IMG/VR virus record: IMGVR_UViG_3300010279_000003
Location: 1 to 44,407 of that record
Strand: one strand, 5' to 3'
Length of the DNA stretch: 44,407 bases
Source: a virus
Lineage: Duplodnaviria > Heunggongvirae > Uroviricota > Caudoviricetes
Shown: piece by piece, positions 1,327-32,055 of the stretch
Layout: each line of letters begins with the position of its first letter
Numbering within the stretch: position 1 is the stretch's first letter
Translations under genes and position numbers: made by a program
Notes under the pieces: model-generated
Database searches by the model: none
Seen by the model: the letters and a program-made list of their open reading frames with translations, nothing else
Told to the model about the DNA's origin: nothing

Positions 1327-1466
1327 TCCACTCCACCCGTTATGATTTCAACAAATATCTGTATCTGAGAGTTTGCACTGTCGAGTTGCTGCCGTAGGCG
1401 TAGAACCTCTTCTTCAAGTTCCTTGATACGTTTTTGCAATGCAGGAATCGGGGCTATGATGTTCAT
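1323..1466 (-). CDS. Small hypothetical protein (~47 aa, coiled-coil-like)
   Basis: Short ORF with ATGA-type overlaps to both neighbours; coordinates approximate. Confidence 0.3.
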   Translation of the reverse strand: MNIIAPIPALQKRIKELEEEVLRLRQQLDSANSQIQIFVEIITGGVE

Positions 1467-2887
1467 TTCTTACCTCGTCTCTTCATGTAATTAAGCAACT
1501 CTTCCTGTACCGATTTCTTCTCGTCTGTACGCGCGGCGACAACCTCGTCCAGCGTATCTTTAGCCACGATGTGGTAGAGAAACACCGGGCGCTCGTGGCC
1601 CGCCTGTTTCTGGCGTACCGGGCCTATGCGCTCAACAACCTGCAAATAGTGCTCAAGGTTCCATCCTTGCGAAATAAACGCCAGATGATGGCCGCCGTCC
1701 TGTAAATTCAAACCATGGCCGGCTGACGCAGGGTGGACGCACAAAATCTCGATTTCGCCCCGGTTCCACGCTTCCATCTGCTTATTACCCTTAGCGCCTT
1801 TGGCAAACGCCTGCGCCTGAGGGAATCGCTTAAGGATACGCTCCAGTTCGTGCTTAAACTGATAGGCCACCAGTAACGGTGCACCCTGTAGCTCCTCAAC
1901 AATGGACTCAAGCGCATCCAGTTTCGTGTCGTGCACTTTCTCCCAGTCTTTCGTTGCTTCGCCGTCCGGTCCTGATACATACACAGCACCAGATGCAATC
2001 TGTAAACACTTCGACGTCTTTGCTGCCGCGTTAGCCGCTTCAACTTCTCCGCTCTCAAGTTCCGCGAATAACTTTTCCTCCATATCGATGTACGCCTGGC
2101 GCGCCTTCTTCGGCAGGTCGATTTCAACAGGGACGATAACGGGCGCTTCGCAGCCAAACCACTCGGCAGCGTCAATCGTGAGACTGATGTCCTTCATCTT
2201 CTGGTGAATTTCATTATCCGCGCCAGGGCGCGCATGATACTCACGTGCCATAGCCGATTTGCCTTTCTGTACTGAGTTAAACCAGCGGTCGGTGAATGCC
2301 GTGTACGACGACCCCAGGCGCTCACCCGCGTCGATAAACCAGTTCTGGCCCCACAAGTCTTTTAGGCCGTTTGGTGACGGTGTGCCTGTAAGGTTAATGA
2401 AACGCTTAACCTTTCCGAACGCCACTTTGCTAAGCGCCTTTGCCCGCTTGCTACCACCTGAACGGCTGCGGAATGATTTTAGTTTCGTGCTTTCATCGGC
2501 GACAATAACCGTAAAAGGCCAGTCGTCTTTGCCGTAGTAGTCAATCAGCCATTCAATAACTTCGTAGTTGGTGCACACCACGTTAGCGTCAGACTCCAGC
2601 GCCGCGATGCGGCGCTTTTCTGAACCGGTGGCATCGACGACACGCAGACACGGGAAACCCCACTTAGTTTGTTCTGAGGGCCATGTGCCGGACGCAACAC
2701 GCAGCGGGGCGAGGATTAACACTCGGTCGTCGTCATTAAGTTGGCCGTTGCGGAACAGTCGGTTAAGCACCCACATCGTTGCGGAACTTTTGCCCGCGCC
2801 CATCGAAGCCCAAATATTACAGCGCGGATGTTGCAACATGAACGAAGTCATGAGCTTCTGGTACTCTCGACGGATAAATTTAGACAT
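1463..2887 (-). CDS. SNF2/DEAD-like superfamily 2 DNA helicase
   Basis: Walker A (GAGKSS) and DESTKLK box; 474 aa. Confidence 0.85.
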   Translation of the reverse strand: MSKFIRREYQKLMTSFMLQHPRCNIWASMGAGKSSATMWVLNRLFRNGQLNDDDRVLILAPLRVASGTWPSEQTKWGFPCLRVVDATGSEKRRIAALESDANVVCTNYEVIEWLIDYYGKDDWPFTVIVADESTKLKSFRSRSGGSKRAKALSKVAFGKVKRFINLTGTPSPNGLKDLWGQNWFIDAGERLGSSYTAFTDRWFNSVQKGKSAMAREYHARPGADNEIHQKMKDISLTIDAAEWFGCEAPVIVPVEIDLPKKARQAYIDMEEKLFAELESGEVEAANAAAKTSKCLQIASGAVYVSGPDGEATKDWEKVHDTKLDALESIVEELQGAPLLVAYQFKHELERILKRFPQAQAFAKGAKGNKQMEAWNRGEIEILCVHPASAGHGLNLQDGGHHLAFISQGWNLEHYLQVVERIGPVRQKQAGHERPVFLYHIVAKDTLDEVVAARTDEKKSVQEELLNYMKRRGKK

Positions 2888-2889
2888 AA

Positions 2890-3084
2890 TTAACCCTTAA
2901 CGTAGAGCACCAGCTCTTTACGCCCGAACGCCGTAACGTTACCAGTTACATCTTCGATAACCAGTTTACCGTTCGACTCGACGAACACCGTATCAACGGC
3001 AACAGGACGACGGGTCTTAACGCTGAAAATCATGTCGCCTGGTACGATGTCACGTGCTGGCTTGCGGTCATATTCGTGTTTCAT
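2890..3084 (-). CDS. Hypothetical protein
   Basis: 64-aa ORF tightly packed between helicase and VRR-NUC genes. Confidence 0.45.
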   Translation of the reverse strand: MKHEYDRKPARDIVPGDMIFSVKTRRPVAVDTVFVESNGKLVIEDVTGNVTAFGRKELVLYVKG

Positions 3085-3114
3085 TTCTCAATTCCTTATA
3101 TTGTTGGTGTGTGA

Positions 3115-3399
3115 TTAACTATAATAGCTCGCTATTAGGTCGTCAACCTGTTTAAACGAACCAACGACAAAAACATTTGCACCACGTTTGCTCATCCGCT
3201 CGTGCTCTCGTAGCTGATGCGGGTCCGGCTTCGTGTTTTCGTCTTTCTTAACCTCGACAAACCAGACTATGCCGCCTGGGAGAATTACCAGCAGGTCAGG
3301 AGCGCCCGCTCTATTTTCGTAGGAAAGTTTACGAACGAGGCCGCCAATGGCCTCGAATTGCTCTTTTGCGTATTTCTGAATCTTGCCTTCCGGTGTCAT
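3115..3399 (-). CDS. VRR-NUC domain nuclease (PD-(D/E)XK fold)
   Basis: 94 aa with PD...EVK motif (APDLLVILPGGIVWFVEVKKDEN). Confidence 0.7.
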   Translation of the reverse strand: MTPEGKIQKYAKEQFEAIGGLVRKLSYENRAGAPDLLVILPGGIVWFVEVKKDENTKPDPHQLREHERMSKRGANVFVVGSFKQVDDLIASYYS

Positions 3400-3679
3400 C
3401 AGTCCGTTACCTTACACAAAACGGCAACACCTAAAAACACGGCTACGATTACCATAATAAAGGTAAGCATTGTCATAATACGCACCCCTCACGTTTCGTT
3501 TGTTCAATACCGCAGCGCGGACAGATTCGACAGTCTTCTTCATAAAACCAGTATATTTTCATTCCAGCACCCACAGATAAATTGCGATGAACATGCCCAA
3601 TACGGCAACCATCATGCCGTATTGACCCTCATGACAGTAGACACCGGCGGCGAATCCCGCCAGTACCGCGATAATCAGT

Positions 3680-5881
3680 TTACTTAGCATAGCGTTTTAA
3701 CTCCGCACCTTCCGCTACAAGAGGGAAACCCTCCGCCCACTCAGGCAGCGAACACATTAATTTTTCCAGTTCAGCCACCGTGTACTCTGGGGCATCTGGA
3801 GTTTCGCACACCAATTCATCGTGTACCGAAAGCACGATGGGGTACCCGCCGCCTTCAACGTTAATCATCGCATACGCAAGTAAATCACGGCACAGCGCCT
3901 GAACAATGTTTTCGCAGGCTTTACCGCCGTGGGTGTACAGGGTAGTCCATTGGCGGGTTAACTGGTTTTCCCCCTGATACTTGATTCGCACATTCGTGTT
4001 TACCCGTCCGTCTTCGTCCGTTTCCTTTGTCACACTAACGCCGATTCCCGGATACGAGAGGATGCGACCTGACGGCAACTCCATGCATAACCACCAACCA
4101 GGAACCTTCCTGCCGGATGAATCAAATTCTACAGTACGCCATATGCGGATAGCCCTTTCCCCATTCCTTCGCAAGTGTGCTCCCGCCCAAAATTCACGAC
4201 CAGGATTACGCACAGCGGCTAAAATTCCGTCTTTAAGGTCACGCCAGAACGCTACTGTTTCAGGGTGTGACTCACGCCACATACGCTTGATTGCGTCGCA
4301 TGTGCGCCACACTTTCTTGTCAAGAATATATGATGGTCGATCGTCCTTTTCCCCTGGATGCGGGGGGCGCTTGGCTTCCTGGATGCGAGCCCATTCATAT
4401 CCTCTCGCGGTGGCTGACCAGATGTGGTCGGGGAATGTACCGTCCATTGTTTTTGCCATCTCAATAAGGTCAAGACCTAAGTTTTTGGCGAACGTAACGA
4501 ACGCTCCTACGCCGCCCTCGTAGCCGAGGCCAAGCTCGCAAGCCTTGCCTATCTGTCTTATTTCCTTGAAGTTTTTCTTAATATCGTCGGGGTCCATGCC
4601 AAACATCTTGCCCGCGGTTACACAGTAAATATCCAGTCCGGCGCGGAACGTATCGAGCGCGGTTTCTTCACCTGCCAGCCACGCAAGCCCGCGGCCTTCA
4701 ACGTTAGAGTAATCGGCGACGACAAACTTACGCCCGGCTTCCGGTATTATGCAGCTACGCACAGTAGATGCCGTTAGTTTGGCTACATCAAAACGGCGAT
4801 GGGCGCGGCCCTTAAGTAACGCCGAAATGCCTTTATCCAGCTCATAATCGTGATAGTAACCGCGTGCCAGGTTCTGCGGCTGGAAGCCTTTACCTGCCCA
4901 TCGCAGAGTACGTTTTGCCCCACCGTACTGCAAGCAACCGCGACGGCGGTCGTCCGAAGAGCGGCCCAGCAGCAGCGGGTTATATTTCGTGGACGCCGTG
5001 GACGCGGCCCCGAGGCGCATTTCGATAATCGTGCGTGCGTCGTCCGGTAAATCATCGTCCGCAAGCAAGTCATTCAGTGTCGACTTCTGCGCGTTGTGAA
5101 TACGGTGCGCAGGCGCAAGTTCACGCAGAATCGGAAGAAAGTCCTTCCCAGTAAGCGAGCAGCCGTGTTTGCGTTGGGCCTCTTCCTGTAACTGCGCTTT
5201 GTGTTTCTCCACGGCTTCAATCGCGGCTTCCGCCAGTGCCACGTCAACCTTAAACCCGCGGTCGTTGATTAACTGGTCCAGTTCCAGTACACGGTCTTCG
5301 AACTCGGAGTTACCCCACCGCGGCAGCTTATGGAAGACTTCACGCATTGCGGTGATGTCACTCACGGCGTATTTGATGAACAGTGCCCACTCGTCCGGGT
5401 GTGTTTCAGCGGTGTAGCGACGGATTTTGTAGTTCTTCGGCGTCGGTTTAGAGAAACGCTGAATCAGCGCCTTGCCTCGTTTGTCTTTCGCGTTGTCTGC
5501 TGACACGCCCAGCACTTCGCACAACGCATCGAGGGAACCCGGCAGCGCGTGACGAAACGCCCAAATCATCGTATCAATGGTGTTGCCTACAGGAATATCA
5601 AAGTCCCAGCAGTGTTTCATGATGAGCCTATCGAACATTGAGCCGTTGTGCCATACCATCTTGATGCGACTGTTCGGCTTAACCAGACGGCGTAGAGCGC
5701 GGTGTAAATCACCCGGCATGTCGCTGCCGTCGGTGCAATCCCATACCTGCACAGGCTCGTCGTCAAAGGCATAGGTACAGATGAGCACTTCGGTTGACGG
5801 GTGTTCGGCGTAAGCGTAGGAGCCGACTTTCTTCAAATCGGCTTCGGAGAATGTTTCAAAGTCCAGGTATAAGTAGCTCAT
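3680..5881 (-). CDS. DNA polymerase, family A, with 3'-5' exonuclease domain
   Basis: Exo motif YLDFETFS; pol motifs DYSNVEGR, RQIGKACELGLGYEGG, VHDELV; start set at ATG 5881 (MSYLYLDFE) with AAGGA RBS rather than the upstream alternative start in the ORF track. Confidence 0.9.
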   Translation of the reverse strand: MSYLYLDFETFSEADLKKVGSYAYAEHPSTEVLICTYAFDDEPVQVWDCTDGSDMPGDLHRALRRLVKPNSRIKMVWHNGSMFDRLIMKHCWDFDIPVGNTIDTMIWAFRHALPGSLDALCEVLGVSADNAKDKRGKALIQRFSKPTPKNYKIRRYTAETHPDEWALFIKYAVSDITAMREVFHKLPRWGNSEFEDRVLELDQLINDRGFKVDVALAEAAIEAVEKHKAQLQEEAQRKHGCSLTGKDFLPILRELAPAHRIHNAQKSTLNDLLADDDLPDDARTIIEMRLGAASTASTKYNPLLLGRSSDDRRRGCLQYGGAKRTLRWAGKGFQPQNLARGYYHDYELDKGISALLKGRAHRRFDVAKLTASTVRSCIIPEAGRKFVVADYSNVEGRGLAWLAGEETALDTFRAGLDIYCVTAGKMFGMDPDDIKKNFKEIRQIGKACELGLGYEGGVGAFVTFAKNLGLDLIEMAKTMDGTFPDHIWSATARGYEWARIQEAKRPPHPGEKDDRPSYILDKKVWRTCDAIKRMWRESHPETVAFWRDLKDGILAAVRNPGREFWAGAHLRRNGERAIRIWRTVEFDSSGRKVPGWWLCMELPSGRILSYPGIGVSVTKETDEDGRVNTNVRIKYQGENQLTRQWTTLYTHGGKACENIVQALCRDLLAYAMINVEGGGYPIVLSVHDELVCETPDAPEYTVAELEKLMCSLPEWAEGFPLVAEGAELKRYAK

Positions 5882-6046
5882 TTCTTTTTCCTTAAATCCA
5901 GTGCCTTCGTTTCGCTTAATCTTATTTTCATACAATCACGACAAATCCACACATGTCTGTACCCGGCGCGGTACTCATCCGCGTACCACGGAAGTGGCTT
6001 CATGTATCGGTATACGTGCTTACAGAAAAACATTATTTTCGACCCT

Positions 6047-6072
6047 TAGTAAAAAGGCCCAATGAAGGGCCT
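6047..6072 (-). terminator. Intrinsic terminator (minus orientation) after the 6093..6725 gene
   Basis: Stem AGGCCC/GGGCCT followed by T-run on the minus strand. Confidence 0.45.
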
Positions 6073-6092
6073 CAGTTAAATTGGTTCAGATA

Positions 6093-6725
6093 TTAACGGC
6101 GACGACGTTCGCGGCGAGGTGCTTCATCTTTTTCATCGTCATCGTCTTCCAGGTCATTGACGCTTGCGGCGACTTTAGAACCACCAAACGCTTTACCTTC
6201 GCCAACATATTTAATTGCCAGCAGGTTAACGCCTAGAACTTTATATTTCTGGCTGAACCAGATTTCAACGCTTACATTAGCTACGCAGCCACTGTAAACC
6301 TGTTCACCTTCAATCTGTTCGCCGTCTACGTTGAAGTCCTGCTCTACCTGAGTCTCACCTTTTTTAGATGTTACAATCAGTGGCTGTTTCTGTGCCTTAG
6401 CTTTGAAGTAGAAGCCTTCCGGGAAGTCTTCAAACGGATTGTCGCGTTCAGCAATATCTTTAATTGCACATTTATCCATGTGCTTACCTTCGCCGTAGTT
6501 GGACTTCATCCACTTCTCGGCAGCGGCTGCGCCTAACGCTTCTTCAACTACAGCGTAGACAGTGTCGTAGAGCGCGTCGATTTGCGCGTGGTCAGACGGC
6601 AGGATTATAGTCGCGCTGTACTGGCCTTTAGTGATGGAGCCATCATCGTTTTCACGGTCTTTTTCGCGTTCGAATACGTTAACCCAGGCAGTGTTTACTT
6701 TACGCAGATTCAGCTTAATACCCAT
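6093..6725 (-). CDS. Hypothetical replication-module protein (possibly DUF2815-like)
   Basis: 210 aa, basic C-terminal tail RRERRRR; family assignment is from memory only. Confidence 0.55.
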   Translation of the reverse strand: MGIKLNLRKVNTAWVNVFEREKDRENDDGSITKGQYSATIILPSDHAQIDALYDTVYAVVEEALGAAAAEKWMKSNYGEGKHMDKCAIKDIAERDNPFEDFPEGFYFKAKAQKQPLIVTSKKGETQVEQDFNVDGEQIEGEQVYSGCVANVSVEIWFSQKYKVLGVNLLAIKYVGEGKAFGGSKVAASVNDLEDDDDEKDEAPRRERRRR

Positions 6726-6781
6726 ATCTCGATTCCTCAGTTTTTAGTTTACTCCGGGAAGCTGCCCGGCCAGTGATTAGA

Positions 6782-6810
6782 ACTATAATAGCCAACTATT
6801 CAGGTGTCAA
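6782..6810 (-). promoter_or_regulatory. Sigma70-like promoter, class A (TTGACA-N17-TATAGT)
   Basis: Read on minus strand; near-identical copy at 8922..8950. Confidence 0.55.
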
Positions 6811-6814
6811 CACT

Positions 6815-8056
6815 TTATTCCAAATCTTCTTCACTAACCTGATTCCACTCAGGCCGTTTGTCGTCTGCCGTTGTGATGCATGGGGCACCTGGTTTACGTG
6901 TGATGAAGTCTTTCAGTTCTTCTTCCGGCACAACTTTAACCGCTTCGGTCGGCGTCATGAGCACTTCTTTAGTCAGCTTGTCGCCGTAGAGTTCTGTTAC
7001 TTTCTCCGCGTCTTTCCACGCACGATTGCCCATCTTACCTTCAACCAGCTTGTACCCAGGAACTTTCTTACCGGAATGCAACGCGGCAGCCATAGCTTTC
7101 TCAACCTTGTCGATGTGCTGGCGCAACAACGGCAACTTCTCGTACTCAGCTACGAGTTCCTCCGGCGTAAGTTCCAGCGCAAAGTCGTCCTCCAGTTCTT
7201 CCGCCAGCACCGCGTTGACGGTTTTTGTACGCGCGGCACACTGTTCAGAGAACCGGCACCACTGACAGCCATCGACCGACGGCTTGAAATCCGACGCTTT
7301 CAGGTTCTTCTTACCGCGGAAATATGCATCTAACGCTAACAGGGCACGTTTCTGTGCAAACTTAGCGAACAGTTCCAGACCTTCAACCGAGATGTCCCAC
7401 TCCGACGCACCGCCAGCGTACGGCTGGAAGATGACCAGACGAACGGTTGTTATGTTATAACGTCTCTTGAGTCGGCGATAAACACCTAGAGCGTAGAGCA
7501 TAAGCTGCTTGTTTTCTTTCGCTTCGACACGATGCCGTCCTGTTTTCAGGTCGCCGATGATAAGCATGTGCCCGTCAGTGTTAGCCAGTTCCTGAACGGC
7601 AACAAGGTCAGCGGTTCCGAACGTCTCAACGCCTTCATACCCAGGATGCAATACCTCAGTAAGATTGACGCGCATTTCCAGCTTGGCGTAAGTTGCTACA
7701 TCGATAATCGGTTTGCAGTAGGCGGTGTACTTTCGCACCTGCTCAATCATGTCCGCCGTAATCAGTACCGCGCCTTTCATCGGGCTGATTAGCGCCTTAA
7801 TCTGGCCTTTACCCTCATCCAGCACGTAAGCACCAACTTCACGCTCTAACGGCAACGCAGTGCCTTTGATGTACTGGTTTAGGTGCATCTCAGCTATCGT
7901 GTGCATGGCGGTACCTAGTACCGCCGCTTTGCCGGATGTGTTAGGAATATCTTTTTCACAGGCCAGCGATGCAGCGCAGCTTAGCCACTTTTTAGCGCCC
8001 GACGGCGACAATAAGGCGTGCACATCATTATTGCCACCGCGTTCTTTTAGAATCAT
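6815..8056 (-). CDS. Cas4/RecB-like PD-(D/E)XK nuclease (DUF2800-like) with C-terminal Cys cluster
   Basis: C-terminal CQWCRFSEQC motif; start set at ATG 8056 (MILKER) overlapping upstream stop; ends ...SEEDLE. Confidence 0.7.
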   Translation of the reverse strand: MILKERGGNNDVHALLSPSGAKKWLSCAASLACEKDIPNTSGKAAVLGTAMHTIAEMHLNQYIKGTALPLEREVGAYVLDEGKGQIKALISPMKGAVLITADMIEQVRKYTAYCKPIIDVATYAKLEMRVNLTEVLHPGYEGVETFGTADLVAVQELANTDGHMLIIGDLKTGRHRVEAKENKQLMLYALGVYRRLKRRYNITTVRLVIFQPYAGGASEWDISVEGLELFAKFAQKRALLALDAYFRGKKNLKASDFKPSVDGCQWCRFSEQCAARTKTVNAVLAEELEDDFALELTPEELVAEYEKLPLLRQHIDKVEKAMAAALHSGKKVPGYKLVEGKMGNRAWKDAEKVTELYGDKLTKEVLMTPTEAVKVVPEEELKDFITRKPGAPCITTADDKRPEWNQVSEEDLE

Positions 8057-8325
8057 GCTCTGTTCTCCCACGGGTCAATTAAATGCCGTGTCTTGTGGTC
8101 GCAATGTAAGGCCCATCCATACATCGACTCGAAGACATAAAAGTCAGGTTTGGCGAATGTCGTGCGCTTAATCTGCGACACATGACGGCCTATATCTTTA
8201 GCCCGCGGTACTTTGCCTAAGTACGCCATCTCTTCCATCTGGTGCGCACCGGACGGCGCACGCAACAGCCACAACGCCTCTGTGTTATCCCGCCTGTCTA
8301 CGGCGCGGTATAGTTGGTAAATCAT
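8053..8325 (-). CDS. Hypothetical protein
   Basis: 90-aa ORF in operon context. Confidence 0.5.
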   Translation of the reverse strand: MIYQLYRAVDRRDNTEALWLLRAPSGAHQMEEMAYLGKVPRAKDIGRHVSQIKRTTFAKPDFYVFESMYGWALHCDHKTRHLIDPWENRA

Positions 8326-8368
8326 AATCCCGACCCTCAGTTAAAGCGGCCCGAAGGCCGCGGGATAG

Positions 8369-8890
8369 TTATTCTTCTTCGAAATACTTGTTCTTGATTG
8401 CTGTCAGGCGTTCCAGGTACTCGGCCAGGTCTTCGTCTTTAATCGCGGCAATCTTCATCTTCTTACCGGTGAACTCTTCCAGCAGTTCGTCAGAATCGTC
8501 GCACGCGGCATCGCTTGGGCCTTCGTTAATCGCATCGTCGATAGCCTGAATCTGGTCGCGCAGAGACTGATAATTGACTTCTTCCTTCTCTTCTTCCGGT
8601 TCTGGCGTCTGCTCCTCTACTTTAGCTTTACGCGGCTTGCGTTTCGGCTTCTCTTCTTCCGCCGGTTTAGTGTCAACGAGGTCTTCACCTTCGACTGGGA
8701 GTTCTTTCGCCTTCTCGACTTCTTCAAGTGCTTTAGCCAGTTCTTTTTTAACTGTCTCCACCCCAGTTACCGCGACGTCAACAGTCAATTCACCTACAGA
8801 TTTATTAGTCGGTTGTTTCACACTGTTCGCAGCAATCAGTTCATGTGCAACTACGAAACGTTCCAGTAATACTAAGAATTTCTCTAACAT
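8369..8890 (-). CDS. Hypothetical Glu/Lys-rich protein
   Basis: 173 aa; first gene downstream of class A promoter at 8922..8950. Confidence 0.55.
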   Translation of the reverse strand: MLEKFLVLLERFVVAHELIAANSVKQPTNKSVGELTVDVAVTGVETVKKELAKALEEVEKAKELPVEGEDLVDTKPAEEEKPKRKPRKAKVEEQTPEPEEEKEEVNYQSLRDQIQAIDDAINEGPSDAACDDSDELLEEFTGKKMKIAAIKDEDLAEYLERLTAIKNKYFEEE

Positions 8891-8921
8891 TATTTATTCT
8901 CCTCTCGTTTGGTATGGGCTA

Positions 8922-8950
8922 ACTATAATAGCGAACTATTCACTTGTCAA
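8922..8950 (-). promoter_or_regulatory. Sigma70-like promoter, class A (TTGACA-N17-TATAGT)
   Basis: Read on minus strand; spacer contains GAATAGTT as in the 6782..6810 copy. Confidence 0.55.
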
Positions 8951-8954
8951 TGGG

Positions 8955-8983
8955 CTTTTCTAAAATAATTAATATGGTACTAT
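8955..8983 (+). promoter_or_regulatory. Candidate promoter for the XRE regulator (extended -10 TGgTACTAT, weak -35)
   Basis: TACTAT at 8978..8983 with TG two bases upstream; lies back-to-back with the minus-strand class A promoter. Confidence 0.35.
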
Positions 8984-9014
8984 TCACATATCAACTGACT
9001 AAGGAGTAATTGAC

Positions 9015-9230
9015 ATGCAACCATCTGAACTAGGCATCCGTGTAGAACAGCGCCGTAAAGAACTCGGCATTTCCCAACGCCGTCTGGCGGTGCTGACCGG
9101 GGTTTCCCAGGGCGCAATTAACCAGCTGGCACTTGGGGTAACCCAGGACGTCCGCCCGGCAACGCTGTTTAAACTGGCGGAAGTGCTGGAGGTAGACGCC
9201 AAGTGGCTGGCGCTAGGTGAAGGGGCTTAA
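9015..9230 (+). CDS. XRE-family helix-turn-helix transcriptional regulator (Cro/CI-like)
   Basis: 71 aa, HTH_3 signature (LGISQRRLAVLTGVSQGAINQL); AAGGAG RBS. Confidence 0.8.
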   Translation: MQPSELGIRVEQRRKELGISQRRLAVLTGVSQGAINQLALGVTQDVRPATLFKLAEVLEVDAKWLALGEGA

Positions 9231-9245
9231 TGCCCCTTTCTTTTT
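9221..9245 (+). terminator. Intrinsic terminator after the XRE gene
   Basis: Stem AGGGGC/GCCCCT, loop TTAAT, T-rich tail. Confidence 0.5.
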
Positions 9246-9247
9246 AC

Positions 9248-11488
9248 CTACTCCAAATCCTCCTCTGTCACCACCAGCATTTCATTTGGTTCGTATATTG
9301 TCTTCGGTCTTAATCTGTCGCCCATCTTTTCCGGTATCCTGTATGTGCCCGGTATAACTTCACCGTTAACATCGCACCCTAGCATCAACTCACCATCTTT
9401 CAGCATCTTCTCGAGATGGTGGTTGGTGATGGCGTGGTCGCCTGAGTTCGCCACTATCTGCCGTTGGGTAAAACCGCGTCCGGTGTCGTCGGCCTGCTGC
9501 AGGTCTTCCAGCGCGGCGAGTATTGATTCCTTACGCCCTTCATCCTTCCCGCGTTTTACAGCATTCTTTACGTTTTCTTTACCTTCTTTCGTCAGCCCTT
9601 CTTCCCGCTCTTTCTCCTCGTCAGTTTTGAACGGCTCGAAGCCCCACGGCATCAGCACAAGTGCCTTATGTGGTTCTGGCAGGTCGAGGTTTACGATTGT
9701 GCCGTATTCCTCTGTGCTACCCAGGAACTCAACCGCACGGTACTCTTTCGGCGGCGGGGCTTCACGGAACTGTACCGACTCCAGCACCATACCAACCGTC
9801 TTCTGTTGAGGCCCGTGCTTAAATTTAGAGTGGTATACATTTATCTGACGGTCTGTTGCGCGTTCAATTGTCAGTTCCACATCGACGCCTGCGTACAGCG
9901 CGCCACTGCCACGGGCTTTCTTTCCACCCTTCGGGGTATGGTGGACGACGCCTACCGCGGCTTTAGTTGTGTCGCGTACTTCTTTCATGATTGCGATAAC
10001 TTTACCCATACCGATTGCCGTTGATGAACTGTTCTCGTCGAACTTATCGATCGTCAGGGCCAGCGTCTGGTTGAGGGTGTCAAACGCAACCATGCCAATA
10101 GGTTCATCCCCCGCAGTTTCGCGCATTAACTTAATCAGGCTTTTCAGTTTTCCGACTTCACCCATGTCGATGACATGTACATAATCTTTACCTTCCTCAC
10201 CATATTTAGCCGCGAGTGCGTCAATACGTGTGCGTGTAGCCGCGCCACCCTCACCGTCGATATAGAAGTGATGGCAACGCTGGGTGTCCGCCCCGGCGAA
10301 CCGGTATCCGGCGGCGCTAAGATACATCATCCCCAGCGTATAGAACGATTTGTATGTGCCCGACTCCCCGACGATATCCCAGATGCAGTCTGACGGCATA
10401 TAACCTTCAACGACGAAATCAGCCTTTACCGGTTCCGGTAGCTCGTCCTCCTCTGAGCCATCATCGTCTTCCAGGTCGTCCAGGCTGCATGAAACAGATT
10501 CACGCGCACCCCATCCGATAGCCTCGGCGACTTCACTGAACGGCAGCCCGGTCGCATCACACGCATACTTCCACACCTCTTTCGGCGACATGCCTTCGGT
10601 TGCCGTAATGTCAGTGTCGTGGATCATGGTTACGTTCGGCGCTTCGTAGCCCTCGCGCGGGAAGCACAGCAGGAAGTCGTCCGGGCGCGGCGTAGGGTCG
10701 CTGTAATTTTCTGCATGTTCCGGCGTAGCTGGCATCTTAAGGCCGCGGGGCGTCATAACACCGCCGTACTCAAACGCCAGTGCCTCAAACGCATCAGTAA
10801 ACGCGGTACGCAGTTCTTCTGGTATCTGGTAGTCAGATGCGCTGCTCACCTCGTAATCCGGGATGCCTTCCAGTAACTCTTCCGGGTCAATCAGGTCGTT
10901 TCGGCGCGACCAGATAACGGTAGAGCCAACCGGCGGCAGGTACATAGGCTGCGACAGAGTGAAACCGCTGCGGTCCGCGCCCATGCCTTTGAAGAAGTGT
11001 TCCAGCAATCCATGGCGAACACGGATGATGTCTCCGCCTTCAACCGGGCGGCCCAGCGGCATGATGACGCGAAAGCGTGGTGACTCATCGGTATGGGATG
11101 CCGTGGTGTAGAGGCACATAGCCAGGCGGCTGCGCTTAACCAGGCGCACAGCTTCCTGATACTCTTCCGGTGTTGCGCTGTCGAAGTCCAGGTACGCCAG
11201 CGACGATTTGCTTACAGACGCGTCGCAGCGATAGAAAAAGCCTTTACGCGCTTGCTTAAAGTCGCCGGTTTCCGGGTCTGTTACGGTGCTGTGTGTAGAG
11301 TCGCACGCAGCGGTGATATACCCGGGCGCGGTCTTAGGGTTAATCCCATCACGAACGGCATCGAGCGGCTGGATTAGCTCTTTCAGGTCGTCCAGTGTTG
11401 CCGTGTGTGTGGTTCTGACGTTTATATCCTTTTTCTCCGCCCGCGCGTTGCGACGTGACCACGAGTAGGATAAAATTACATCGGACAT
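9248..11488 (-). CDS. Primase/helicase (primase-polymerase-like N-terminus plus RecA-like ATPase C-terminal half)
   Basis: 746 aa; Walker A-like GESGTYKS; acidic DFD motif near N-terminus; ends ...TEEDLE. Confidence 0.7.
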   Translation of the reverse strand: MSDVILSYSWSRRNARAEKKDINVRTTHTATLDDLKELIQPLDAVRDGINPKTAPGYITAACDSTHSTVTDPETGDFKQARKGFFYRCDASVSKSSLAYLDFDSATPEEYQEAVRLVKRSRLAMCLYTTASHTDESPRFRVIMPLGRPVEGGDIIRVRHGLLEHFFKGMGADRSGFTLSQPMYLPPVGSTVIWSRRNDLIDPEELLEGIPDYEVSSASDYQIPEELRTAFTDAFEALAFEYGGVMTPRGLKMPATPEHAENYSDPTPRPDDFLLCFPREGYEAPNVTMIHDTDITATEGMSPKEVWKYACDATGLPFSEVAEAIGWGARESVSCSLDDLEDDDGSEEDELPEPVKADFVVEGYMPSDCIWDIVGESGTYKSFYTLGMMYLSAAGYRFAGADTQRCHHFYIDGEGGAATRTRIDALAAKYGEEGKDYVHVIDMGEVGKLKSLIKLMRETAGDEPIGMVAFDTLNQTLALTIDKFDENSSSTAIGMGKVIAIMKEVRDTTKAAVGVVHHTPKGGKKARGSGALYAGVDVELTIERATDRQINVYHSKFKHGPQQKTVGMVLESVQFREAPPPKEYRAVEFLGSTEEYGTIVNLDLPEPHKALVLMPWGFEPFKTDEEKEREEGLTKEGKENVKNAVKRGKDEGRKESILAALEDLQQADDTGRGFTQRQIVANSGDHAITNHHLEKMLKDGELMLGCDVNGEVIPGTYRIPEKMGDRLRPKTIYEPNEMLVVTEEDLE

Positions 11489-11546
11489 GTTGTATTTCCT
11501 TCAGCAAGTAATTTGGCCTCGGCGTTCACCGCGTCGGGGCTTTCTT

Positions 11547-11780
11547 TTATTCCAGGTCTTCTAAAGTAGCTGTCATTCCGCGAACTTCGGCAACAGCACT
11601 ATATTTCCCGCCAACATTTTTCACGACACCAGATTTAACCAGCACCTTCAACGACCCTTCAATAATGGCGGAACTATAGTACTTAAAATAACTACGCCGC
11701 AAGTCCATAACGCTGCACGACCCTTTTTTACGTGTTAGCGAAACGACCGCCGTAAATACCCGCGACTGGAACTCGGTCAT
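11547..11780 (-). CDS. Hypothetical protein
   Basis: 77 aa; ends ...TLEDLE, the same tail as two replication proteins. Confidence 0.5.
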   Translation of the reverse strand: MTEFQSRVFTAVVSLTRKKGSCSVMDLRRSYFKYYSSAIIEGSLKVLVKSGVVKNVGGKYSAVAEVRGMTATLEDLE

Positions 11781-11947
11781 TTCACGTTCTCCTTAATCCA
11801 CGCTTCCACTTTCTCCGGGTCAAACGTACCTGGCTGACGACGGCCCATAATGCGAATACAACAATCCGGGAACTTCCCACTCTTTAACCAGTTATTCAGC
11901 GTGCGACGGGTAACCCCGATGCGCTCAGCTACCTCATTCTGCGTCAT
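11777..11947 (-). CDS. AlpA/excisionase-like HTH DNA-binding protein
   Basis: ~56-aa ORF not in the ORF track (below its length cutoff); motif VAERIGVTRRTLNNWLKSGKFP; first gene after promoter 11980..12008. Confidence 0.5.
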   Translation of the reverse strand: MTQNEVAERIGVTRRTLNNWLKSGKFPDCCIRIMGRRQPGTFDPEKVEAWIKENVK

Positions 11948-11979
11948 TCTCAAACCCCCATTATCAGTTAACGAAACAA

Positions 11980-12008
11980 AGTATACATTGCGAATAATGG
12001 GAAATCAA
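11980..12008 (-). promoter_or_regulatory. Sigma70-like promoter for the minus-strand replication operon (TTGATT-N17-TATACT)
   Basis: Hexamers and 17-nt spacing read on minus strand. Confidence 0.5.
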
Positions 12009-12023
12009 ACATAATTGCACCTA

Positions 12024-12052
12024 TTGACATTATGAAAATCTTCGTTTAAGGT
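12024..12052 (+). promoter_or_regulatory. Candidate promoter (TTGACA-N17-TAAGGT) at the start of a non-coding unit
   Basis: Consensus -35, weak -10; terminator about 250 nt downstream. Confidence 0.3.
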
Positions 12053-12098
12053 GCTTCTATATCTTAGTTACTTTGATTCCTGTTCACCTTGTAAGAAT

Positions 12099-12130
12099 GT
12101 TTAACCCGTGCGTCAAGCAAAGGGTTAAAC
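12099..12130. other. Hairpin, 9-bp perfect stem GTTTAACCC/GGGTTAAAC with 14-nt loop
   Basis: Inverted repeat read directly. Confidence 0.7.
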
Positions 12131-12285
12131 ACAGGCTTACTGAACATAAGAATTATCGTAACTTTCCTTCCTTAGTATCTCCGGTTGCCCTGGGCAAGCT
12201 ATATTCTCATCGACGGCATATCTCTTAAGTATCTGATTTTCTTAAAGTGCCGTAGATTCGCAACCGTAAAAATGTAACGATTATT

Positions 12286-12313
12286 GGGCAGGCTTAAGGC
12301 CTGCCCTTTAGTT
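12286..12313 (+). terminator. Intrinsic terminator (stem GGGCAGGC/GCCTGCCC, then TTTAGTT)
   Basis: 8-bp GC-rich stem with T-rich tail in plus orientation. Confidence 0.5.
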
Positions 12314-12378
12314 ACCAAGTAATAAGAATAAAGGCACAACCTTCCCCGAAGAATCACAACGGCAGCGTAACTATTCTC

Positions 12379-12407
12379 TTGCACACCCCAATATAATAGG
12401 ATACTAT
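12379..12407 (+). promoter_or_regulatory. Sigma70-like promoter, class B (TTGCAC-N17-TACTAT)
   Basis: Spacer ...AATATAATAGGATACTATTCA; same family found six times. Confidence 0.6.
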
Positions 12408-12441
12408 TCACTTATCGAAACGAGACAGAGGAGTGAGGGTT

Positions 12442-13344: not shown

Positions 13345-13503
13345 CAGGTCAATAGGTTACTATTTGGCTTAGTGGCTTACGCTGCTACACAGCAGCGTAC
13401 AACTTTAACCTAGTGTCGTCAAAAAGCGACACTTCTCTAAGACTCTGTTGGGTCAGGAATAAAGTGTCTCCGATTAGCGACATTAAACACTAATAAAATT
13501 TAC

Positions 13504-13532
13504 TTGCACACTGGGATAGAATAGGCTACTAT
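13504..13532 (+). promoter_or_regulatory. Sigma70-like promoter, class B (TTGCAC-N17-TACTAT)
   Basis: Followed by conserved leader AAACGAGAGGAGAGACAGAG then ATG at 13563. Confidence 0.6.
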
Positions 13533-13562
13533 TCATTTACACAAACGAGAGGAGAGACAGAG

Positions 13563-16234: not shown

Positions 16235-16263
16235 TTGACTACTACCCTAGACCCTATTATATT
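16235..16263 (+). promoter_or_regulatory. Sigma70-like promoter (TTGACT-N17-TATATT)
   Basis: Followed by leader CGACAACGAGAACGGAGTAGAGAAG and ATG at 16297. Confidence 0.55.
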
Positions 16264-21447: not shown

Positions 21448-21467
21448 CCCCTGTTTAAGTTATCTGA

Positions 21468-21496
21468 ATAGTACCCTATTATATTGGTGTCTGCAA
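21468..21496 (-). promoter_or_regulatory. Sigma70-like promoter, class B (TTGCAG-N17-TACTAT)
   Basis: Read on minus strand; about 45 bp nearly identical to the copy at 24318..24346. Confidence 0.6.
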
Positions 21497-24290: not shown

Positions 24291-24317
24291 TTATCATCTC
24301 CTGTTTAAGTTAACTGA

Positions 24318-24346
24318 ATAGTACCCTATTATATTGGTGTGCGCAA
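24318..24346 (-). promoter_or_regulatory. Sigma70-like promoter, class B (TTGCGC-N17-TACTAT) driving the DnaN-like gene
   Basis: Read on minus strand; conserved leader TTAACTTAAACAGGAG follows. Confidence 0.6.
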
Positions 24347-25946: not shown

Positions 25947-26996
25947 ATGGCAATTACCACTATCGGCGATATCGTAACTGGCAACATCCCGGTCCTGGCG
26001 TCTTATATGACCGAGGACCCGGTAGAAAAAACCGCGTTCTTCCAGTCCGGTATTCTTACCCCTACTCCGTACGCCGCCGAGATTGCCCGCGGCCCGTCCA
26101 ACGTCGCTAACATTCCTTTCTGGAAAGCGATTGATACTTCTATCGAGCCTAACTACTCGAACGACGTATACCAGGACATCGCTACCCCGCGTAACGTGCA
26201 AACCGGCGAGATGATGGCGCGCGTTGCATACCTGAACGAAGGTTTTGGCCAGGCGGACCTGACTGTCGAACTGACCAGCCAGAACCCGCTGCAATCCGTA
26301 GCGTCCCGTCTGGATAACTTCTGGCAGCGCCAGGCGCAACGCCGTCTGATCGCTACCGCGCTCGGTCTGTACAATGACAACGTAGCCGCTACCGACGCAT
26401 ACCACGAGCAGAATGACATGGTTGTAGACGTGTCTGCTACTCTGGGCTTCGACGCAGGTGCGTTCATCGACGCCACCCAGACTATGGGTGATGCGCTGAT
26501 GGGCAACGGCGGAGAAGTGCTGGGTGCTATCGCGATGCACAGCTTCGTTTATGCGCAGGCCCGTAAGCAGCAGCTTATTGACTTCATCAAAGACGCCGAC
26601 AACGACACACTGTTCGCCACCTACCAGGGTTACCGCGTGATTGTTGACGACAGCATGACCGTAGTCGGCACCGGCTCTAGCCGTAAGTTCATCTCCATTA
26701 TCTTCGGTAACGGCGCTATCGGTTACGGTGAAGGTTCTCCGTCCAACCCGTTGGAATACGAGCGCGAAGCGTCTCGCGGCAACGGCGGTGGGGTAGAAAC
26801 CCTGTGGACCCGTAAGACCTGGTTGCTGCACCCACTGGGCTACAGCTTTACCAGCGCAGTAATCACCGGTAACGGCACCGAGACCGTCGCACGTTCTGCT
26901 TCATGGCAGGACCTGGCGAACGCCTCCAACTGGAACCGCGTTGTTGAGCGTAAGCATGTACCGATTGCCTTCCTGGTAACTGGTGTCGGTGCTTAA
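25947..26996 (+). CDS. Major capsid protein
   Basis: 349 aa after scaffold gene, followed by a strong terminator; assignment by position and size. Confidence 0.7.
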   Translation: MAITTIGDIVTGNIPVLASYMTEDPVEKTAFFQSGILTPTPYAAEIARGPSNVANIPFWKAIDTSIEPNYSNDVYQDIATPRNVQTGEMMARVAYLNEGFGQADLTVELTSQNPLQSVASRLDNFWQRQAQRRLIATALGLYNDNVAATDAYHEQNDMVVDVSATLGFDAGAFIDATQTMGDALMGNGGEVLGAIAMHSFVYAQARKQQLIDFIKDADNDTLFATYQGYRVIVDDSMTVVGTGSSRKFISIIFGNGAIGYGEGSPSNPLEYEREASRGNGGGVETLWTRKTWLLHPLGYSFTSAVITGNGTETVARSASWQDLANASNWNRVVERKHVPIAFLVTGVGA

Positions 26997-27012
26997 GGTT
27001 AAGCTATAATCG

Positions 27013-27040
27013 AGAGGGACTTCGGTCCCTCTTTTCATTT
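27013..27040 (+). terminator. Intrinsic terminator after the capsid gene
   Basis: Stem AGAGGGAC/GTCCCTCT, loop TTCG, T-rich tail. Confidence 0.7.
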
Positions 27041-27055
27041 ACTAAGAGGTAAATT

Positions 27056-27355
27056 ATGGCTAAGACTGGAAAAGGCTTGCCGCGCAGCCTTCAGAATGTC
27101 GATTTCGGCGACTTTGATATCCCTGTCGCACCTGCTACTACCAGCGTAGTTGGTGGGGTTAAAAAGTCAGCTACTGTGGATGCACCTGCGGCCGTTACCG
27201 CAGCCGCAGGGGAGCAGTCCGCTGCTGAACCGACTAAAGTCGAGTTCGACGCGCTTGTAGCGGAGTACAACAAACTCCTAACCGATGTTACCGCGCTGCG
27301 CACTACCGTAGCGAACCTGTTAACCGCGCTTAAAAACGCAGGAACTGTAAGCTAA
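27056..27355 (+). CDS. Hypothetical head-associated protein
   Basis: 99 aa, Ala-rich; AAGAGG RBS. Confidence 0.5.
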   Translation: MAKTGKGLPRSLQNVDFGDFDIPVAPATTSVVGGVKKSATVDAPAAVTAAAGEQSAAEPTKVEFDALVAEYNKLLTDVTALRTTVANLLTALKNAGTVS

Positions 27356-27367
27356 AGGAGATTAAAA

Positions 27368-27715
27368 ATGGTTGATGTAATTAAACGTCGTATTACCGGT
27401 GTTTCTGATGAAGACTCTGACGGTCAGGTTGAAATCGACATGGCAAACATCTCTCCAGCGTCTTTTTCTACCGCACTGAGCGCCACCACAGCAGTTACAG
27501 CCGGGCAGACTATGACACTGACCGTAGTTGTTACTGGTGGTCTGGAGCCGTATTCCTACCAGTGGTACAAGAACAACAACGCTATCGCCGGGGCAAACGC
27601 GGCTTCCTATGCGAAGGCGTCCACCACTACCGCCGATTCAGGTACGTATAAAGTGGTTGTTCACGACGTGTATGGTAATATTATCTCCAGCAGCACTAAA
27701 GTAACCGTGTCTTAA
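27368..27715 (+). CDS. Ig-like domain protein
   Basis: PYSYQWYKNNNAI...SGTYKVVVHDVYG pattern. Confidence 0.5.
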   Translation: MVDVIKRRITGVSDEDSDGQVEIDMANISPASFSTALSATTAVTAGQTMTLTVVVTGGLEPYSYQWYKNNNAIAGANAASYAKASTTTADSGTYKVVVHDVYGNIISSSTKVTVS

Positions 27716-27751
27716 TACAATGGCCCTTCGGGGCCGTAATAAGGAAAGGTC

Positions 27752-27931
27752 ATGACAGATAATTATGTAATCCGTGAAAAGTACACCCACGTCGATATTG
27801 TCGATGGCCAGGTAATGCCCGTCCGCGGTGTTGTGGAAGCGGATGCGCTGGATGCAGCACAACCGGACAACGAAGAAGCGCACAACAACGGCGGTGGCAC
27901 TAAGCGTCGTCGCCGTAAGTCAGAGGAATAA
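27752..27931 (+). CDS. Small hypothetical protein (~59 aa)
   Basis: Short ORF with AAGGAAAGG RBS. Confidence 0.35.
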   Translation: MTDNYVIREKYTHVDIVDGQVMPVRGVVEADALDAAQPDNEEAHNNGGGTKRRRRKSEE

Positions 27932-27934
27932 TTT

Positions 27935-28447
27935 ATGCCGCTAATCGTGGAAACTGGGGCAATCGTCCCGAATGCCGACAGTTACATTAGTCTGGCTGAC
28001 GCCCGCGCGTTAGCGGCTAATTATGGTCTTGAGTTACCCGCTGACGATACTGCCGCCGAAGTAGCCTTGCGCAACGGCGCTACTTATGTCGGGCTTGTAG
28101 AACCGCAGATGTGTGGTCGTCGTGTATCCGCGGAGCAGTCCCTGGCGTATCCTCGCACTGGTGTAACGTTGAATGGTTTTCCTGTAGCCAATAACGTAAT
28201 CCCTAAACAGGTAATTCTTGCGCAGGTAATCGCCGCTGCTACATATGGTGCCGGTACTGAGGTGCGGGCTAACTCTGATGGGCGTTCCGTGCAGACTGAG
28301 CGTGTCGAGGGTGCGGTAACAGTGACCTACTTCAACAACGGCAGCAGTGGTGCTACGACCGCGATTACCGCTGCAGACGACGCCTTACGCCCGTTACTGT
28401 GCGGTGGTCTTAACAATGGCTTCTCGTTTAATGTGTACCGGGGTTAA
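27935..28447 (+). CDS. Hypothetical structural protein (possible head-tail connector)
   Basis: 170 aa; position in head-to-tail joining region. Confidence 0.45.
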   Translation: MPLIVETGAIVPNADSYISLADARALAANYGLELPADDTAAEVALRNGATYVGLVEPQMCGRRVSAEQSLAYPRTGVTLNGFPVANNVIPKQVILAQVIAAATYGAGTEVRANSDGRSVQTERVEGAVTVTYFNNGSSGATTAITAADDALRPLLCGGLNNGFSFNVYRG

Positions 28448-28449
28448 AA

Positions 28450-29064
28450 ATGGCGAAGACTAAATCTGAGATATTTACCCTTATAGGGCAGGAGTTACCC
28501 GACAACACGACGGGGCTTATCACTCCGGCCAAGCTGCGCGGTGTTCTTACGCAGATGGCTGACTCACCTATTTACGCCACTCCTGGCGTTAAAGAGGTTG
28601 AAGTTCTCCGTGCCGCGTCTACCGTAACACAAGCGCCTACCGCGGTAGATACGGCATTGCAGTTAACTTTCGGTCCCGCGCAGGGTAGCGCATCTGACCC
28701 GGTAATGATTAATGCAGCGGGTCTGGTTACGTTCAACACTGCAGGCAACTACGCCGTTCGCATCAAGTTACAGGCGGGGCGCACTGGAGCGAGCGGGACG
28801 TCCGTCCTGTTATCGCGCATTCTTCTTAACGGCGCACAGTACGCCTCGCCAGCAGCTACTAAACTGGTAAGTGCTGATACTACAATCCCGATTGAATCTC
28901 GCGTCGTTATTAACACAACCGCAGGCCAGACGTTTGCTGTTCAGATTATGCGGGATAGTGCCGGGACCAACTTCGGCGGCGTATATCTGCAAGTTGCTAC
29001 CGTAACCGCATGGGGTACAGCACCATCCGCATTACTGGTTATTTCGAGACTGGAGGCCGCCTGA
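28450..29064 (+). CDS. Hypothetical structural protein
   Basis: 204-aa ORF. Confidence 0.5.
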   Translation: MAKTKSEIFTLIGQELPDNTTGLITPAKLRGVLTQMADSPIYATPGVKEVEVLRAASTVTQAPTAVDTALQLTFGPAQGSASDPVMINAAGLVTFNTAGNYAVRIKLQAGRTGASGTSVLLSRILLNGAQYASPAATKLVSADTTIPIESRVVINTTAGQTFAVQIMRDSAGTNFGGVYLQVATVTAWGTAPSALLVISRLEAA

Positions 29065-29158
29065 TGAATAAGTTCACATGTGGTGTAGTTTTTGGTTTTC
29101 TTACCGCGGTAGTCTTGCACAGTTACGGTGTTCTTTTGACGCTGCAAGAGGTGCTAAA

Positions 29159-31496: not shown

Positions 31497-31523
31497 AAGG
31501 CCCCGAAAGGGGCCTTACTATTT
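31497..31523. terminator. Bidirectional intrinsic terminator
   Basis: Stem AAGGCCCC/GGGGCCTT, loop GAAA; T-rich on the minus side. Confidence 0.6.
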
Positions 31524-32027: not shown

Positions 32028-32055
32028 AAGGCCCCTTTCGGGGCCTTTTTCTTTA
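32028..32055 (+). terminator. Hairpin with T-tail in plus orientation, inside the minus-strand accessory operon
   Basis: Stem AAGGCCCC/GGGGCCTT, loop TTTC, then TTTCTTT. Confidence 0.45.

Follow-up and report, generated by a model that had tools for sequence, protein, structure and literature searches.

Within a 44,407-nt viral genome (IMG/VR record IMGVR_UViG_3300010279_000003, positions 1 to 44,407; hereafter the window), the stretch 8922-9245 holds a promoter, an open reading frame (ORF) that starts at 9015 and a terminator. The ORF encodes a 71-amino-acid (aa) helix-turn-helix (HTH) protein of the XRE family, called XRE below, and the DNA beside it carries two copies, one of them imperfect, of a 14-bp palindrome, AATAG-N4-CTATT, that recurs in promoters throughout the window. 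Read from sequence, XRE looks like a global regulator of the Cro type and not like half of a local switch. Our best model, which we regard as probable but well short of certain, is that a single-domain repressor of the 434-Cro type would act on most phage promoters and more weakly on its own, and that two conserved promoters without a full operator would escape it. A Cro-type repressor that occludes promoters is a textbook mechanism; what is unusual is the breadth of the target set. The new element, which we put forward with moderate confidence, is a testable model in which most promoters of a virulent phage would contain the operator of a Cro-type regulator.

In 446 phage records there is a match to the region 8300-9700, with identities of 80-95%; Escherichia phages P AB-2017 and K1ind1 come closest (93%). 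We therefore place the window in Kagunavirus (subfamily Guernseyvirinae), a genus of small lytic siphophages whose published relatives are reported to be lytic (PMC8425127), and take it for the genome of a lytic E. coli phage. Gene layout was obtained by mapping the annotated proteins of the Kagunavirus Bas73 onto the window. Every gene so mapped between 1338 and 12411 is on the minus strand, which bears out the original prediction that XRE is the sole plus-strand gene in a minus-strand replication block. No integrase was found among the mapped genes or the extra window ORFs scanned against Pfam, again as predicted, and the same set held no partition genes. Neither the mapping nor the Pfam-scanned proteins contained an S24 or CI-like ORF, in a scan that covered part of the ORFs, and no phage RNA polymerase gene was found in the window.

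The regulator gene and its divergent control region

On its sequence matches and predicted fold, XRE is a Cro/CI-like HTH protein of the 434-Cro kind, in agreement with the HTH_3 regulator that had been predicted. It matches Pfam HTH_3 (PF01381) over residues 11-65 (E 2.3e-12, 47.2 bits against a cut-off of 23) and falls in PHROG families for transcriptional repressors or regulators. Against solved structures, the top phmmer matches are a 434-repressor variant (E 6.1e-6), 434 Cro (E 7.9e-6) and the N-terminal domain of 434 repressor (E 1.5e-5). A search of a large protein database gave only relatives of at least 77% identity, which served as the alignment for a structure model (AF2, pLDDT 77.6) with five helices at residues 5-17, 21-28, 32-39, 48-57 and 62-66; the third (residues 32-39, QGAINQLA) is the predicted recognition helix. 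Foldseek aligns this model with the 434 repressor N-terminal domain and 434 Cro at TM 0.71-0.77, and with SinR, C.AhdI, HipB and P22 c2 at TM 0.7-0.77. The two 434 proteins are thus the best solved relatives, and 434 Cro has the same length (71 aa) and five-helix fold, but identity to them is only 36-38%. The HTH domain fills residues 5-68 of XRE with nothing after it, a single-domain protein, and no C-terminal dimerisation or oligomerisation domain or S24 cleavage domain was found in the 71 aa.

XRE is a Kagunavirus core gene that is already annotated as a repressor or regulator, and it is found in essentially all Kagunavirus and Jerseyvirus records; the core regulatory genes of Jerseyvirus likewise include an XRE gene (PMC8425127). 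With tblastn, 117 records (Kagunavirus) match at 90% identity or more and about 420 at less than 60%, mainly Jerseyvirus (about 48%) and Cornellvirus (about 41%). Divergence was scored over 37 distinct Kagunavirus loci, as the share of them that departs from the window at an alignment column, averaged over columns. It is 0.039, 0.003 and 0.207 at the first, second and third codon positions of the gene, a clear sign of purifying selection, and we rejected the possibility that XRE is a decayed remnant on this ground.

Three records of the gene deserve mention in their own right. Bas73 (L039, PQ850603.1) carries XRE unannotated at 34027-34239 with 98.6% identity, and a 31-aa ORF on the opposite strand (34042-34137) is listed instead. 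In an 84-aa homologue on a 43-kb contig (P0001), the first 13 residues after the initiator methionine are tandemly duplicated (MQPSELGIRVEQRR-QPSELGIRVEKRR...). An 18,987-bp contig of a Bacteroidota assembly labelled 'Taishania pollutisoli' (L098, NZ_JACVEL010000022.1) has an XRE of the Jerseyvirus type with the same sequence as in the IMG/VR Jerseyvirus locus L078, together with Jerseyvirus operator sites, and is probably phage contamination.

The 124-bp intergenic region upstream of XRE contains two copies of a cassette with the AATAG-N4-CTATT core, visible as a 25-nt direct repeat (8926-8950 and 8970-8994), one member of a promoter family with copies throughout the window. The first copy coincides with a leftward sigma-70 promoter that we call class A (Table 1). 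It matches the consensus at 11 of 12 positions, joint best in the window, has near-identical copies at 6782-6810 and 3118-3146, and is predicted to drive the gene 8890->8369 and the replication genes downstream. The product of this divergent gene is acidic and belongs to PHROG 3127 (unknown function); it has no Pfam match and hence no HTH domain. The perfect palindrome in the promoter is the proposed operator O1, and 44 bp away, centre to centre, lies O2, which deviates at one of ten specified positions.

O2 stands in the register of a second promoter class, class B, relative to XRE: the start codon follows 31 nt past the palindrome (25 nt at the site 12395, 30 nt at 13520). This places the XRE promoter back-to-back with the class A promoter, each overlapping a palindrome. 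The G-to-T change that makes O2 imperfect also creates the extended -10 sequence TGgTACTAT, whose TG is invariant in relatives, unlike its middle base, which in L074 is C and not G. At this position Jerseyvirus carries TTGCGT, similar to a -35, giving TTGCGT-17-TACTAT. The back-to-back promoters of the original prediction are therefore seen as the leftward TTGACA-17-TATAGT opposite one of two plus-strand candidates, at 8975-8983 or at 8939-8966.

At the other end of the gene, the stem-loop of the terminator (9219-9239) is followed by the T-run TTTCTTTTT up to 9245, and the minus-strand stop codon of the primase (9248-9250) begins 2 nt past the terminator end, which settles in the affirmative the earlier claim that the two abut. 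The hairpin region 9212-9250 folds as RNA at -17.2 kcal/mol (z -3.2), and the terminator diverges by 0.039 across relatives. Because the XRE stop codon (9228-9230) lies within the terminator loop and the next gene is the convergent primase, the ORF is monocistronic. Because only the plus strand carries the T-run, leftward primase transcripts probably read through antisense to XRE.

Most of the intergenic region diverges by about 0.03, compared with 0.207 at XRE third codon positions, so that synonymous positions vary about 5-7 times as much as the regulatory region. Within it, divergence is 0.000 at the class A -35, 0.005 at its -10 and 0.000 at the half-sites of O1 and O2, and it rises to 0.122 at the centre of O1. 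The arrangement of promoters, gene and terminator is more than chance, because the 25-nt repeat belongs to the window-wide promoter family and because of this low intergenic divergence. The lambda-type divergent switch that had been suggested holds in part: besides the Cro/CI-type protein there is a divergent promoter pair with two operator-like palindromes. The part that is not supported is the bistable switch, since no CI partner was found among the mapped or scanned ORFs, XRE has no C-terminal dimerisation or cleavage domain and the operator is spread genome-wide. Compared with the lambdoid CI/Cro switch there are only two sites, one perfect and one with a single mismatch, and not OR1-3, with graded affinity a plausible feature of the pair.

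The palindrome across the window

No other 5-N-5 palindrome is as frequent in the window as AATAG-N4-CTATT. It occurs 9 times in perfect form, where shuffled sequence gives 0.04, and eight of the nine, together with O2, sit within a promoter cassette. The cassette common to the copies is asymmetric, TAT-AATAG-NNNN-CTATT-CAC. At class A sites (3123, 6787 and 8927) a -35 of TTGACA or TTGACG lies on the CAC side, and the palindrome fills the 17-nt spacer and enters the -10 TATAGT. Of the leftward promoters, these three are the strongest (10-11 of 12 consensus positions). At class B sites, of which 12395 and 13520 belong to the plus strand and 21467, 24317 and 33872 to the minus strand, a TTGCAC-like -35 stands 17 nt before a TACTAT that overlaps the right half-site, and a ribosome-binding site (RBS) and start codon follow within 25-31 nt. 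We also considered class B promoters on the opposite strand (-10 TATATT with a poor -35), and rejected them because the RBS and start codons lie 25-31 nt off the other side of the palindrome.

The ninth perfect copy, the orphan at 13351-13364, has neither the TAT nor the CAC flank that is usual for the cassette, and no -35 or -10 is clear beside it. Besides O2 there is a second palindrome with one mismatch at 37925-37938 (AGTAGcatgCTATT). This site is overlapped by TTGCCA-17-TAGCAT, a promoter of its own for the endonuclease gene 37154-37900.

Two further promoters have no full palindrome: TTGATT-17-TATACT (12008->11980, minus strand), which precedes the HTH_17, gp77 and primase genes, and TTGACT-17-TATATT (16235-16263, plus strand), which precedes small genes, the terminase and structural genes. 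Their hexamers are kept in both Kagunavirus and Jerseyvirus, and we regard them as candidate regulator-independent promoters.

Half-sites are constant and centres variable among the sites within the window, as they are among relatives, where at least 20 tetranucleotides occur at the centres of 116 distinct perfect sites from Kagunavirus loci. This pattern, with fixed half-sites and a free centre, has the look of an operator for a dimeric HTH protein. The palindrome also resembles the 434 operator in its 14-bp length, conserved outer bases, variable centre and position over the core promoter, and differs from it in the half-site, AATAG and not ACAA.

Table 1. Coordinates of the regulator locus, of operator copies elsewhere in the window, and of the primase gene in two sister phages.
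Feature	Position	Strand	Details
Predicted class A sigma-70 promoter, leftward	8950->8922	-	-35 TTGACA 8950-8945, 17-nt spacer, -10 TATAGT 8927-8922, expected start about 8915
O1, perfect 14-bp palindrome AATAGcgaaCTATT, proposed high-affinity XRE operator	8927-8940	both	In spacer of the leftward promoter, into its -10
Alternative candidate XRE promoter TTCACT-16-TAAAAT	8939-8966	+	Promoter scan
O2, imperfect palindrome AATATggtaCTATT, proposed weaker autoregulatory operator	8971-8984	both	Overlaps -10 of the candidate XRE promoter
Candidate XRE promoter, extended -10 TGgTACTAT	8975-8983	+	TG 8975-8976, -10 8978-8983, expected start about 8990
Ribosome-binding site AAGGAG	9001-9006	+	8 nt 5' of ATG; read from sequence; kept in relatives
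XRE, 434-Cro-like regulator gene, 71 aa	9015-9230	+	HTH_3, PHROG, 434 Cro match, AF2 model
Intrinsic terminator of the XRE transcript, GAAGGGGC-TTAAT-GCCCCTTT then T-run	9219-9245	+	Terminator scan, fold energy
Operator copy in spacer of class A promoter 3146->3118	3123-3136	both	Upstream of gene 3084->2890 and helicase
Operator copy in spacer of class A promoter 6810->6782	6787-6800	both	Upstream of SSB-like gene 6725->6093
Operator copy, class B (+), TTGCAC-17-TACTAT	12395-12408	both	Heads rightward arm; first start codon 12433
Orphan perfect palindrome AATAGgttaCTATT	13351-13364	both	7 nt past stop of DUF551 gene; 169 bp upstream of the 13520 cassette
Operator copy, class B (+)	13520-13533	both	30 nt 5' of start codon 13563
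Operator copy, class B (-)	21467-21480	both	Small opposite-strand gene 21447->21265 in late region
Operator copy, class B (-)	24317-24330	both	Opposite-strand gene 24290->23769
Operator copy, class B (-)	33872-33885	both	Opposite-strand genes down to 32470 (metallophosphatase/exonuclease)
Primase-helicase downstream of XRE, Salmonella phage Shemara (L038)	35330-38169	same as XRE	
Primase-helicase downstream of XRE, Otaku (L128)	26573-29341	same as XRE	

The motif has been described before under another reading. For Kagunavirus fBC-Eco01, tgAATAGTa-ccTATTat-T was given simply as a 'phage promoter' consensus, predicted with PHIRE as a 'phage RNA polymerase promoter' in seven copies (PMC9825357), and seven PHIRE promoters were reported for VB_EcoS-Golestan (PMC7203180). 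In the literature we found no published reading of the motif as a palindromic operator and no link to the XRE gene.

A palindrome with no protein partner, merely part of the shared architecture of a duplicated promoter cassette, would fit those reports, and on either strand its half-sites do coincide in part with -10-like hexamers (TATAAT/TATAGT and TACTAT); the role of XRE would then be unrelated and possibly minor. We consider this very unlikely, because the centres vary while both half-sites are invariant, because the orphan at 13351 has no promoter hexamers and because the same palindrome type occurs beside homologous repressor genes in high-GC contigs. The conserved promoters at 16235 and 12008 do without the left half-site, so a promoter does not need the palindrome.

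A probable protein partner for the palindrome and a model for its action

We assign the AATAG-N4-CTATT palindrome to XRE with moderate confidence, on three grounds: an association between helix-3 type and operator, the 14-bp geometry shared with the 434 operator, and the alignment of XRE Q32 and Q37 with Q28 and Q33 of 434 repressor, residues that contact bases. The association comes from six distant IMG/VR homologues (L089, L090, L092-L094 and L097; 38-43% identity) with the helix-3 motif SQG.I.Q. Four of them have C-terminal extensions of S24/LexA-repressor length, one has a shorter extension and one is a 72-aa XRE of an AT-rich phage. The 88 kb around these genes contain 14 A[AT]TAG-N4-CTA[AT]T sites against 0.13 expected, and all 14 flank the repressor gene, often in the order -35, operator in the spacer, -10; several sit in a TTGACA promoter as in class A of the window. 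A scan of genome contigs gave mostly XRE proteins with other recognition helices, which we used as a negative control: 30 XRE homologues with other helix-3 sequences have no such site in 154 kb (0.96 expected). From the palindrome census and this association we infer that XRE binds specific DNA. The six loci resemble that of the window in DNA-binding domain, helix-3 motif and operators in the spacer or over the -35, but differ in that the repressor gene stands beside a divergent gene and the sites are confined to its flanks. The CI-like homologue L092 is closest to VarioGold CI of a Variovorax phage (44%; 31% to the cI proteins of 434 and D3); we dropped it as a wet-lab anchor for the operator because VarioGold CI is uncharacterised.

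Several observations speak against XRE as the binder, or against a repressor with so many targets. Kagunavirus and Jerseyvirus share the palindrome, yet their XRE proteins are 48% identical and differ in helix 3 (SQGAINQL and SQSLITHL), while the HTH_17 protein is 88% identical between the two genera and the genes neighbouring XRE are 64-93% identical; covariation between genera thus fails to mark out XRE as the binder. In Serratia phage Otaku an XRE gene is present but no AT-rich palindrome is enriched. If a repressor acts on almost every promoter of a lytic phage, there must be some way round it, and the operator-free promoters that could serve are consensus matches only. The sole Kagunavirus RNA-seq study (K1B4), which is coarse, puts a 'specific DNA binding' gene next to an AAA gene, a gene we infer to be XRE, in the middle class (PMC12645636).

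Covariation of helix 3 and palindrome across genera gave no uniform pattern among Kagunavirus/Jerseyvirus, Cornellvirus and Otaku, and so does not point to one binder. Of the proteins of phage 434, Cro and the repressor are only about half identical and have common operators.

The comparison of Kagunavirus with Jerseyvirus bears on another candidate. The palindrome might be bound by a different factor, either a host protein or the early 58-aa HTH_17 protein (excisionase/MerR-like, 11953->11777), which would perhaps activate class B promoters with their weak '-35', with XRE binding elsewhere or acting locally. The pattern of HTH_17 fits: it is 88% identical between the two genera that share the palindrome and undetectable in Cornellvirus, whose palindrome differs. 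Its own promoter has no palindrome, class B -35 hexamers are poor, and K1B4 RNA-seq counts an HTH gene among four 'early' genes (PMC12645636). Still, we think this unlikely. Class A promoters carry the site in their spacers although an activator is not needed there, given 10-11 of 12 consensus positions and 17-bp spacers, and a site over the -10 is the position of a repressor. In six unrelated loci the operator goes with one class of recognition helix, a tie that concerns the XRE domain specifically, and Cornellvirus retains related palindromes without HTH_17: no HTH_17 homologue was detectable in Cornellvirus (Shemara) or Otaku, and Shemara keeps asymmetric palindromes ATTAG-N4-GTAWT in equivalent promoter positions.

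In the model with XRE as the repressor, two monomers would occupy the 14-bp site, each placing its helix 3 (QGAINQLA) in the major groove at one of the outer 5-bp half-sites. As the palindrome lies in the promoter spacer or the -10, bound XRE would exclude host RNA polymerase. After infection, host RNA polymerase would start at all cassettes; XRE would build up from its own extended -10 promoter and fill the perfect operators first. Its targets would be the leftward replication promoters at 8927, 6787 and 3123, the head of the rightward arm at 12395 and 13520, and four opposite-strand islands in the late region (21467, 24317, 33872 and the one-mismatch site at 37925). At higher levels XRE would also fill the imperfect O2 and limit its own promoter, a negative autoregulation; because O2 is a weakened copy of the operator, this promoter would be shut last. 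The promoters 12008->11980 and 16235-16263 would escape and could lead on to late expression. Overall, early transcription would be turned down in the manner of Cro while XRE accumulates, with no decision between lysis and lysogeny.

Compared with phage 434, the XRE locus has no divergent cI partner, tripartite OR or lysogeny module, and its putative operators lie at nine or more promoters and not at OR and OL. Global repressors with dispersed operators are known from temperate phages, where P1 C1, mycobacteriophage L5 gp71 with its 'stoperators' and the phiC31 repressor maintain lysogeny; P1 and L5 sites are asymmetric, and the phiC31 repressor has conserved inverted repeats. The likeness is that of one small regulator with many operator copies at or near promoters genome-wide, but here the phage is virulent, the protein family is another and the domain is a minimal one of Cro type.

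This likeness raises the question of whether XRE is a true immunity-type repressor, giving reversible carrier or pseudolysogenic dormancy, or superinfection exclusion, in a phage deemed strictly lytic. Operators are present in nearly all recognisable promoters with the weakest copy at that of XRE itself, and the XRE gene and its intergenic region form the module most diverged between Kagunavirus and Jerseyvirus, as immunity regions do. Set against this, XRE lacks a C-terminal domain for oligomerisation or cleavage, the mapped and Pfam-scanned ORFs included no integrase or partition genes, published isolates form clear plaques and gave no mitomycin-inducible lysogens (PMC8425127), and our literature search found no report of pseudolysogeny in this subfamily. 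We consider such a repressor very improbable indeed. A broader form of the idea, in which XRE and its genome-wide operators would make up a whole-genome silencing circuit, serving either reversible non-integrated dormancy or type-specific superinfection immunity with Kagunavirus and Jerseyvirus heteroimmune, is quite unlikely in our view; such heteroimmune types would explain why this module is the most diverged.

It is extremely unlikely that XRE acts on the host or on a partner protein, as a DicA-like repressor of a cryptic prophage, an antitoxin of the HipB/HigA type or a restriction-modification C protein. Some records do label it 'DicA', and its fold resembles those of HipB, HigA and C.AhdI about as closely as that of 434 Cro, but the top candidate binding sites lie in the phage's own promoters. 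The terminator follows directly on the XRE ORF, so there is no co-transcribed toxin, restriction or methylase gene, and the antitoxin and C-protein readings were rejected for want of partner genes.

Kagunaviruses and Jerseyviruses are among the phages most often isolated for therapy and food biocontrol, and their 'transcriptional repressor' gene has repeatedly been flagged in safety assessments or ignored, without a functional model. If the Cro-type model is true, one 71-aa protein and one 14-bp site would account for most of the transcriptional control in a 44-kb genome with appeal for synthetic biology, and the published PHIRE promoter motif would be re-read as an operator inside host-type promoters. 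XRE supplied in trans should then block phage plating, and mutation of the half-sites should de-repress the promoter.

Orientation in sister lineages and genome layout

Orthologues of XRE are known in Jerseyvirus (gp55, 'XRE family regulator'), Cornellvirus Shemara (gp54) and Otaku (gp46), as a core gene in the same position beside the leftward replication genes; identity is 41-49% and helix 3 differs. In Shemara and Otaku, XRE is the first gene of an arm that runs on the same strand into the primase, continues past it into early, lysis and structural genes and diverges from the replication arm, which is the classical position of Cro. Because XRE is co-directional with the primase in these phages, the primase-HTH_17 segment appears to have been inverted in the lineage of Kagunavirus and Jerseyvirus, and such an inversion best explains the antiparallel orientation seen in the window. 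It would have left XRE alone with a terminator at the junction and given rise to a second divergent control region at 11954-12432.

That stretch, 480 bp of non-coding DNA, separates the leftward HTH_17 gene from the rightward arm. It holds a strong hairpin at 12286-12306 (GGGCAGGCttaaGGCCTGCCC) and half a palindrome at 12370-12378, and in its Bas73 equivalent a minus-strand ORF of 106 aa is annotated that may be spurious.

By the Bas73 mapping, the leftward arm (1338-12411, minus strand) encodes a helicase, a resolvase, a DNA polymerase, an SSB-like protein, an exonuclease, a primase-helicase and the excisionase-like HTH protein. The rightward arm begins at 12433 with small early genes, followed by lysis genes, the terminase and structural genes, and contains a few islands of genes on the opposite strand. 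The window has three endonuclease genes of HNH or homing type, all on the minus strand: 31583-32014 and 37154-37900, opposite in strand to the late structural arm in which they lie, and 832-1326 at the left end. The next commonest palindromes after the operator are near-identical hairpins, AAGGCCCC-N4-GGGGCCTT, at 765-784, 6055-6074, 31498-31517 and 32028-32047; they recur at the boundaries of gene blocks, and some were listed as terminator-like by the scan.

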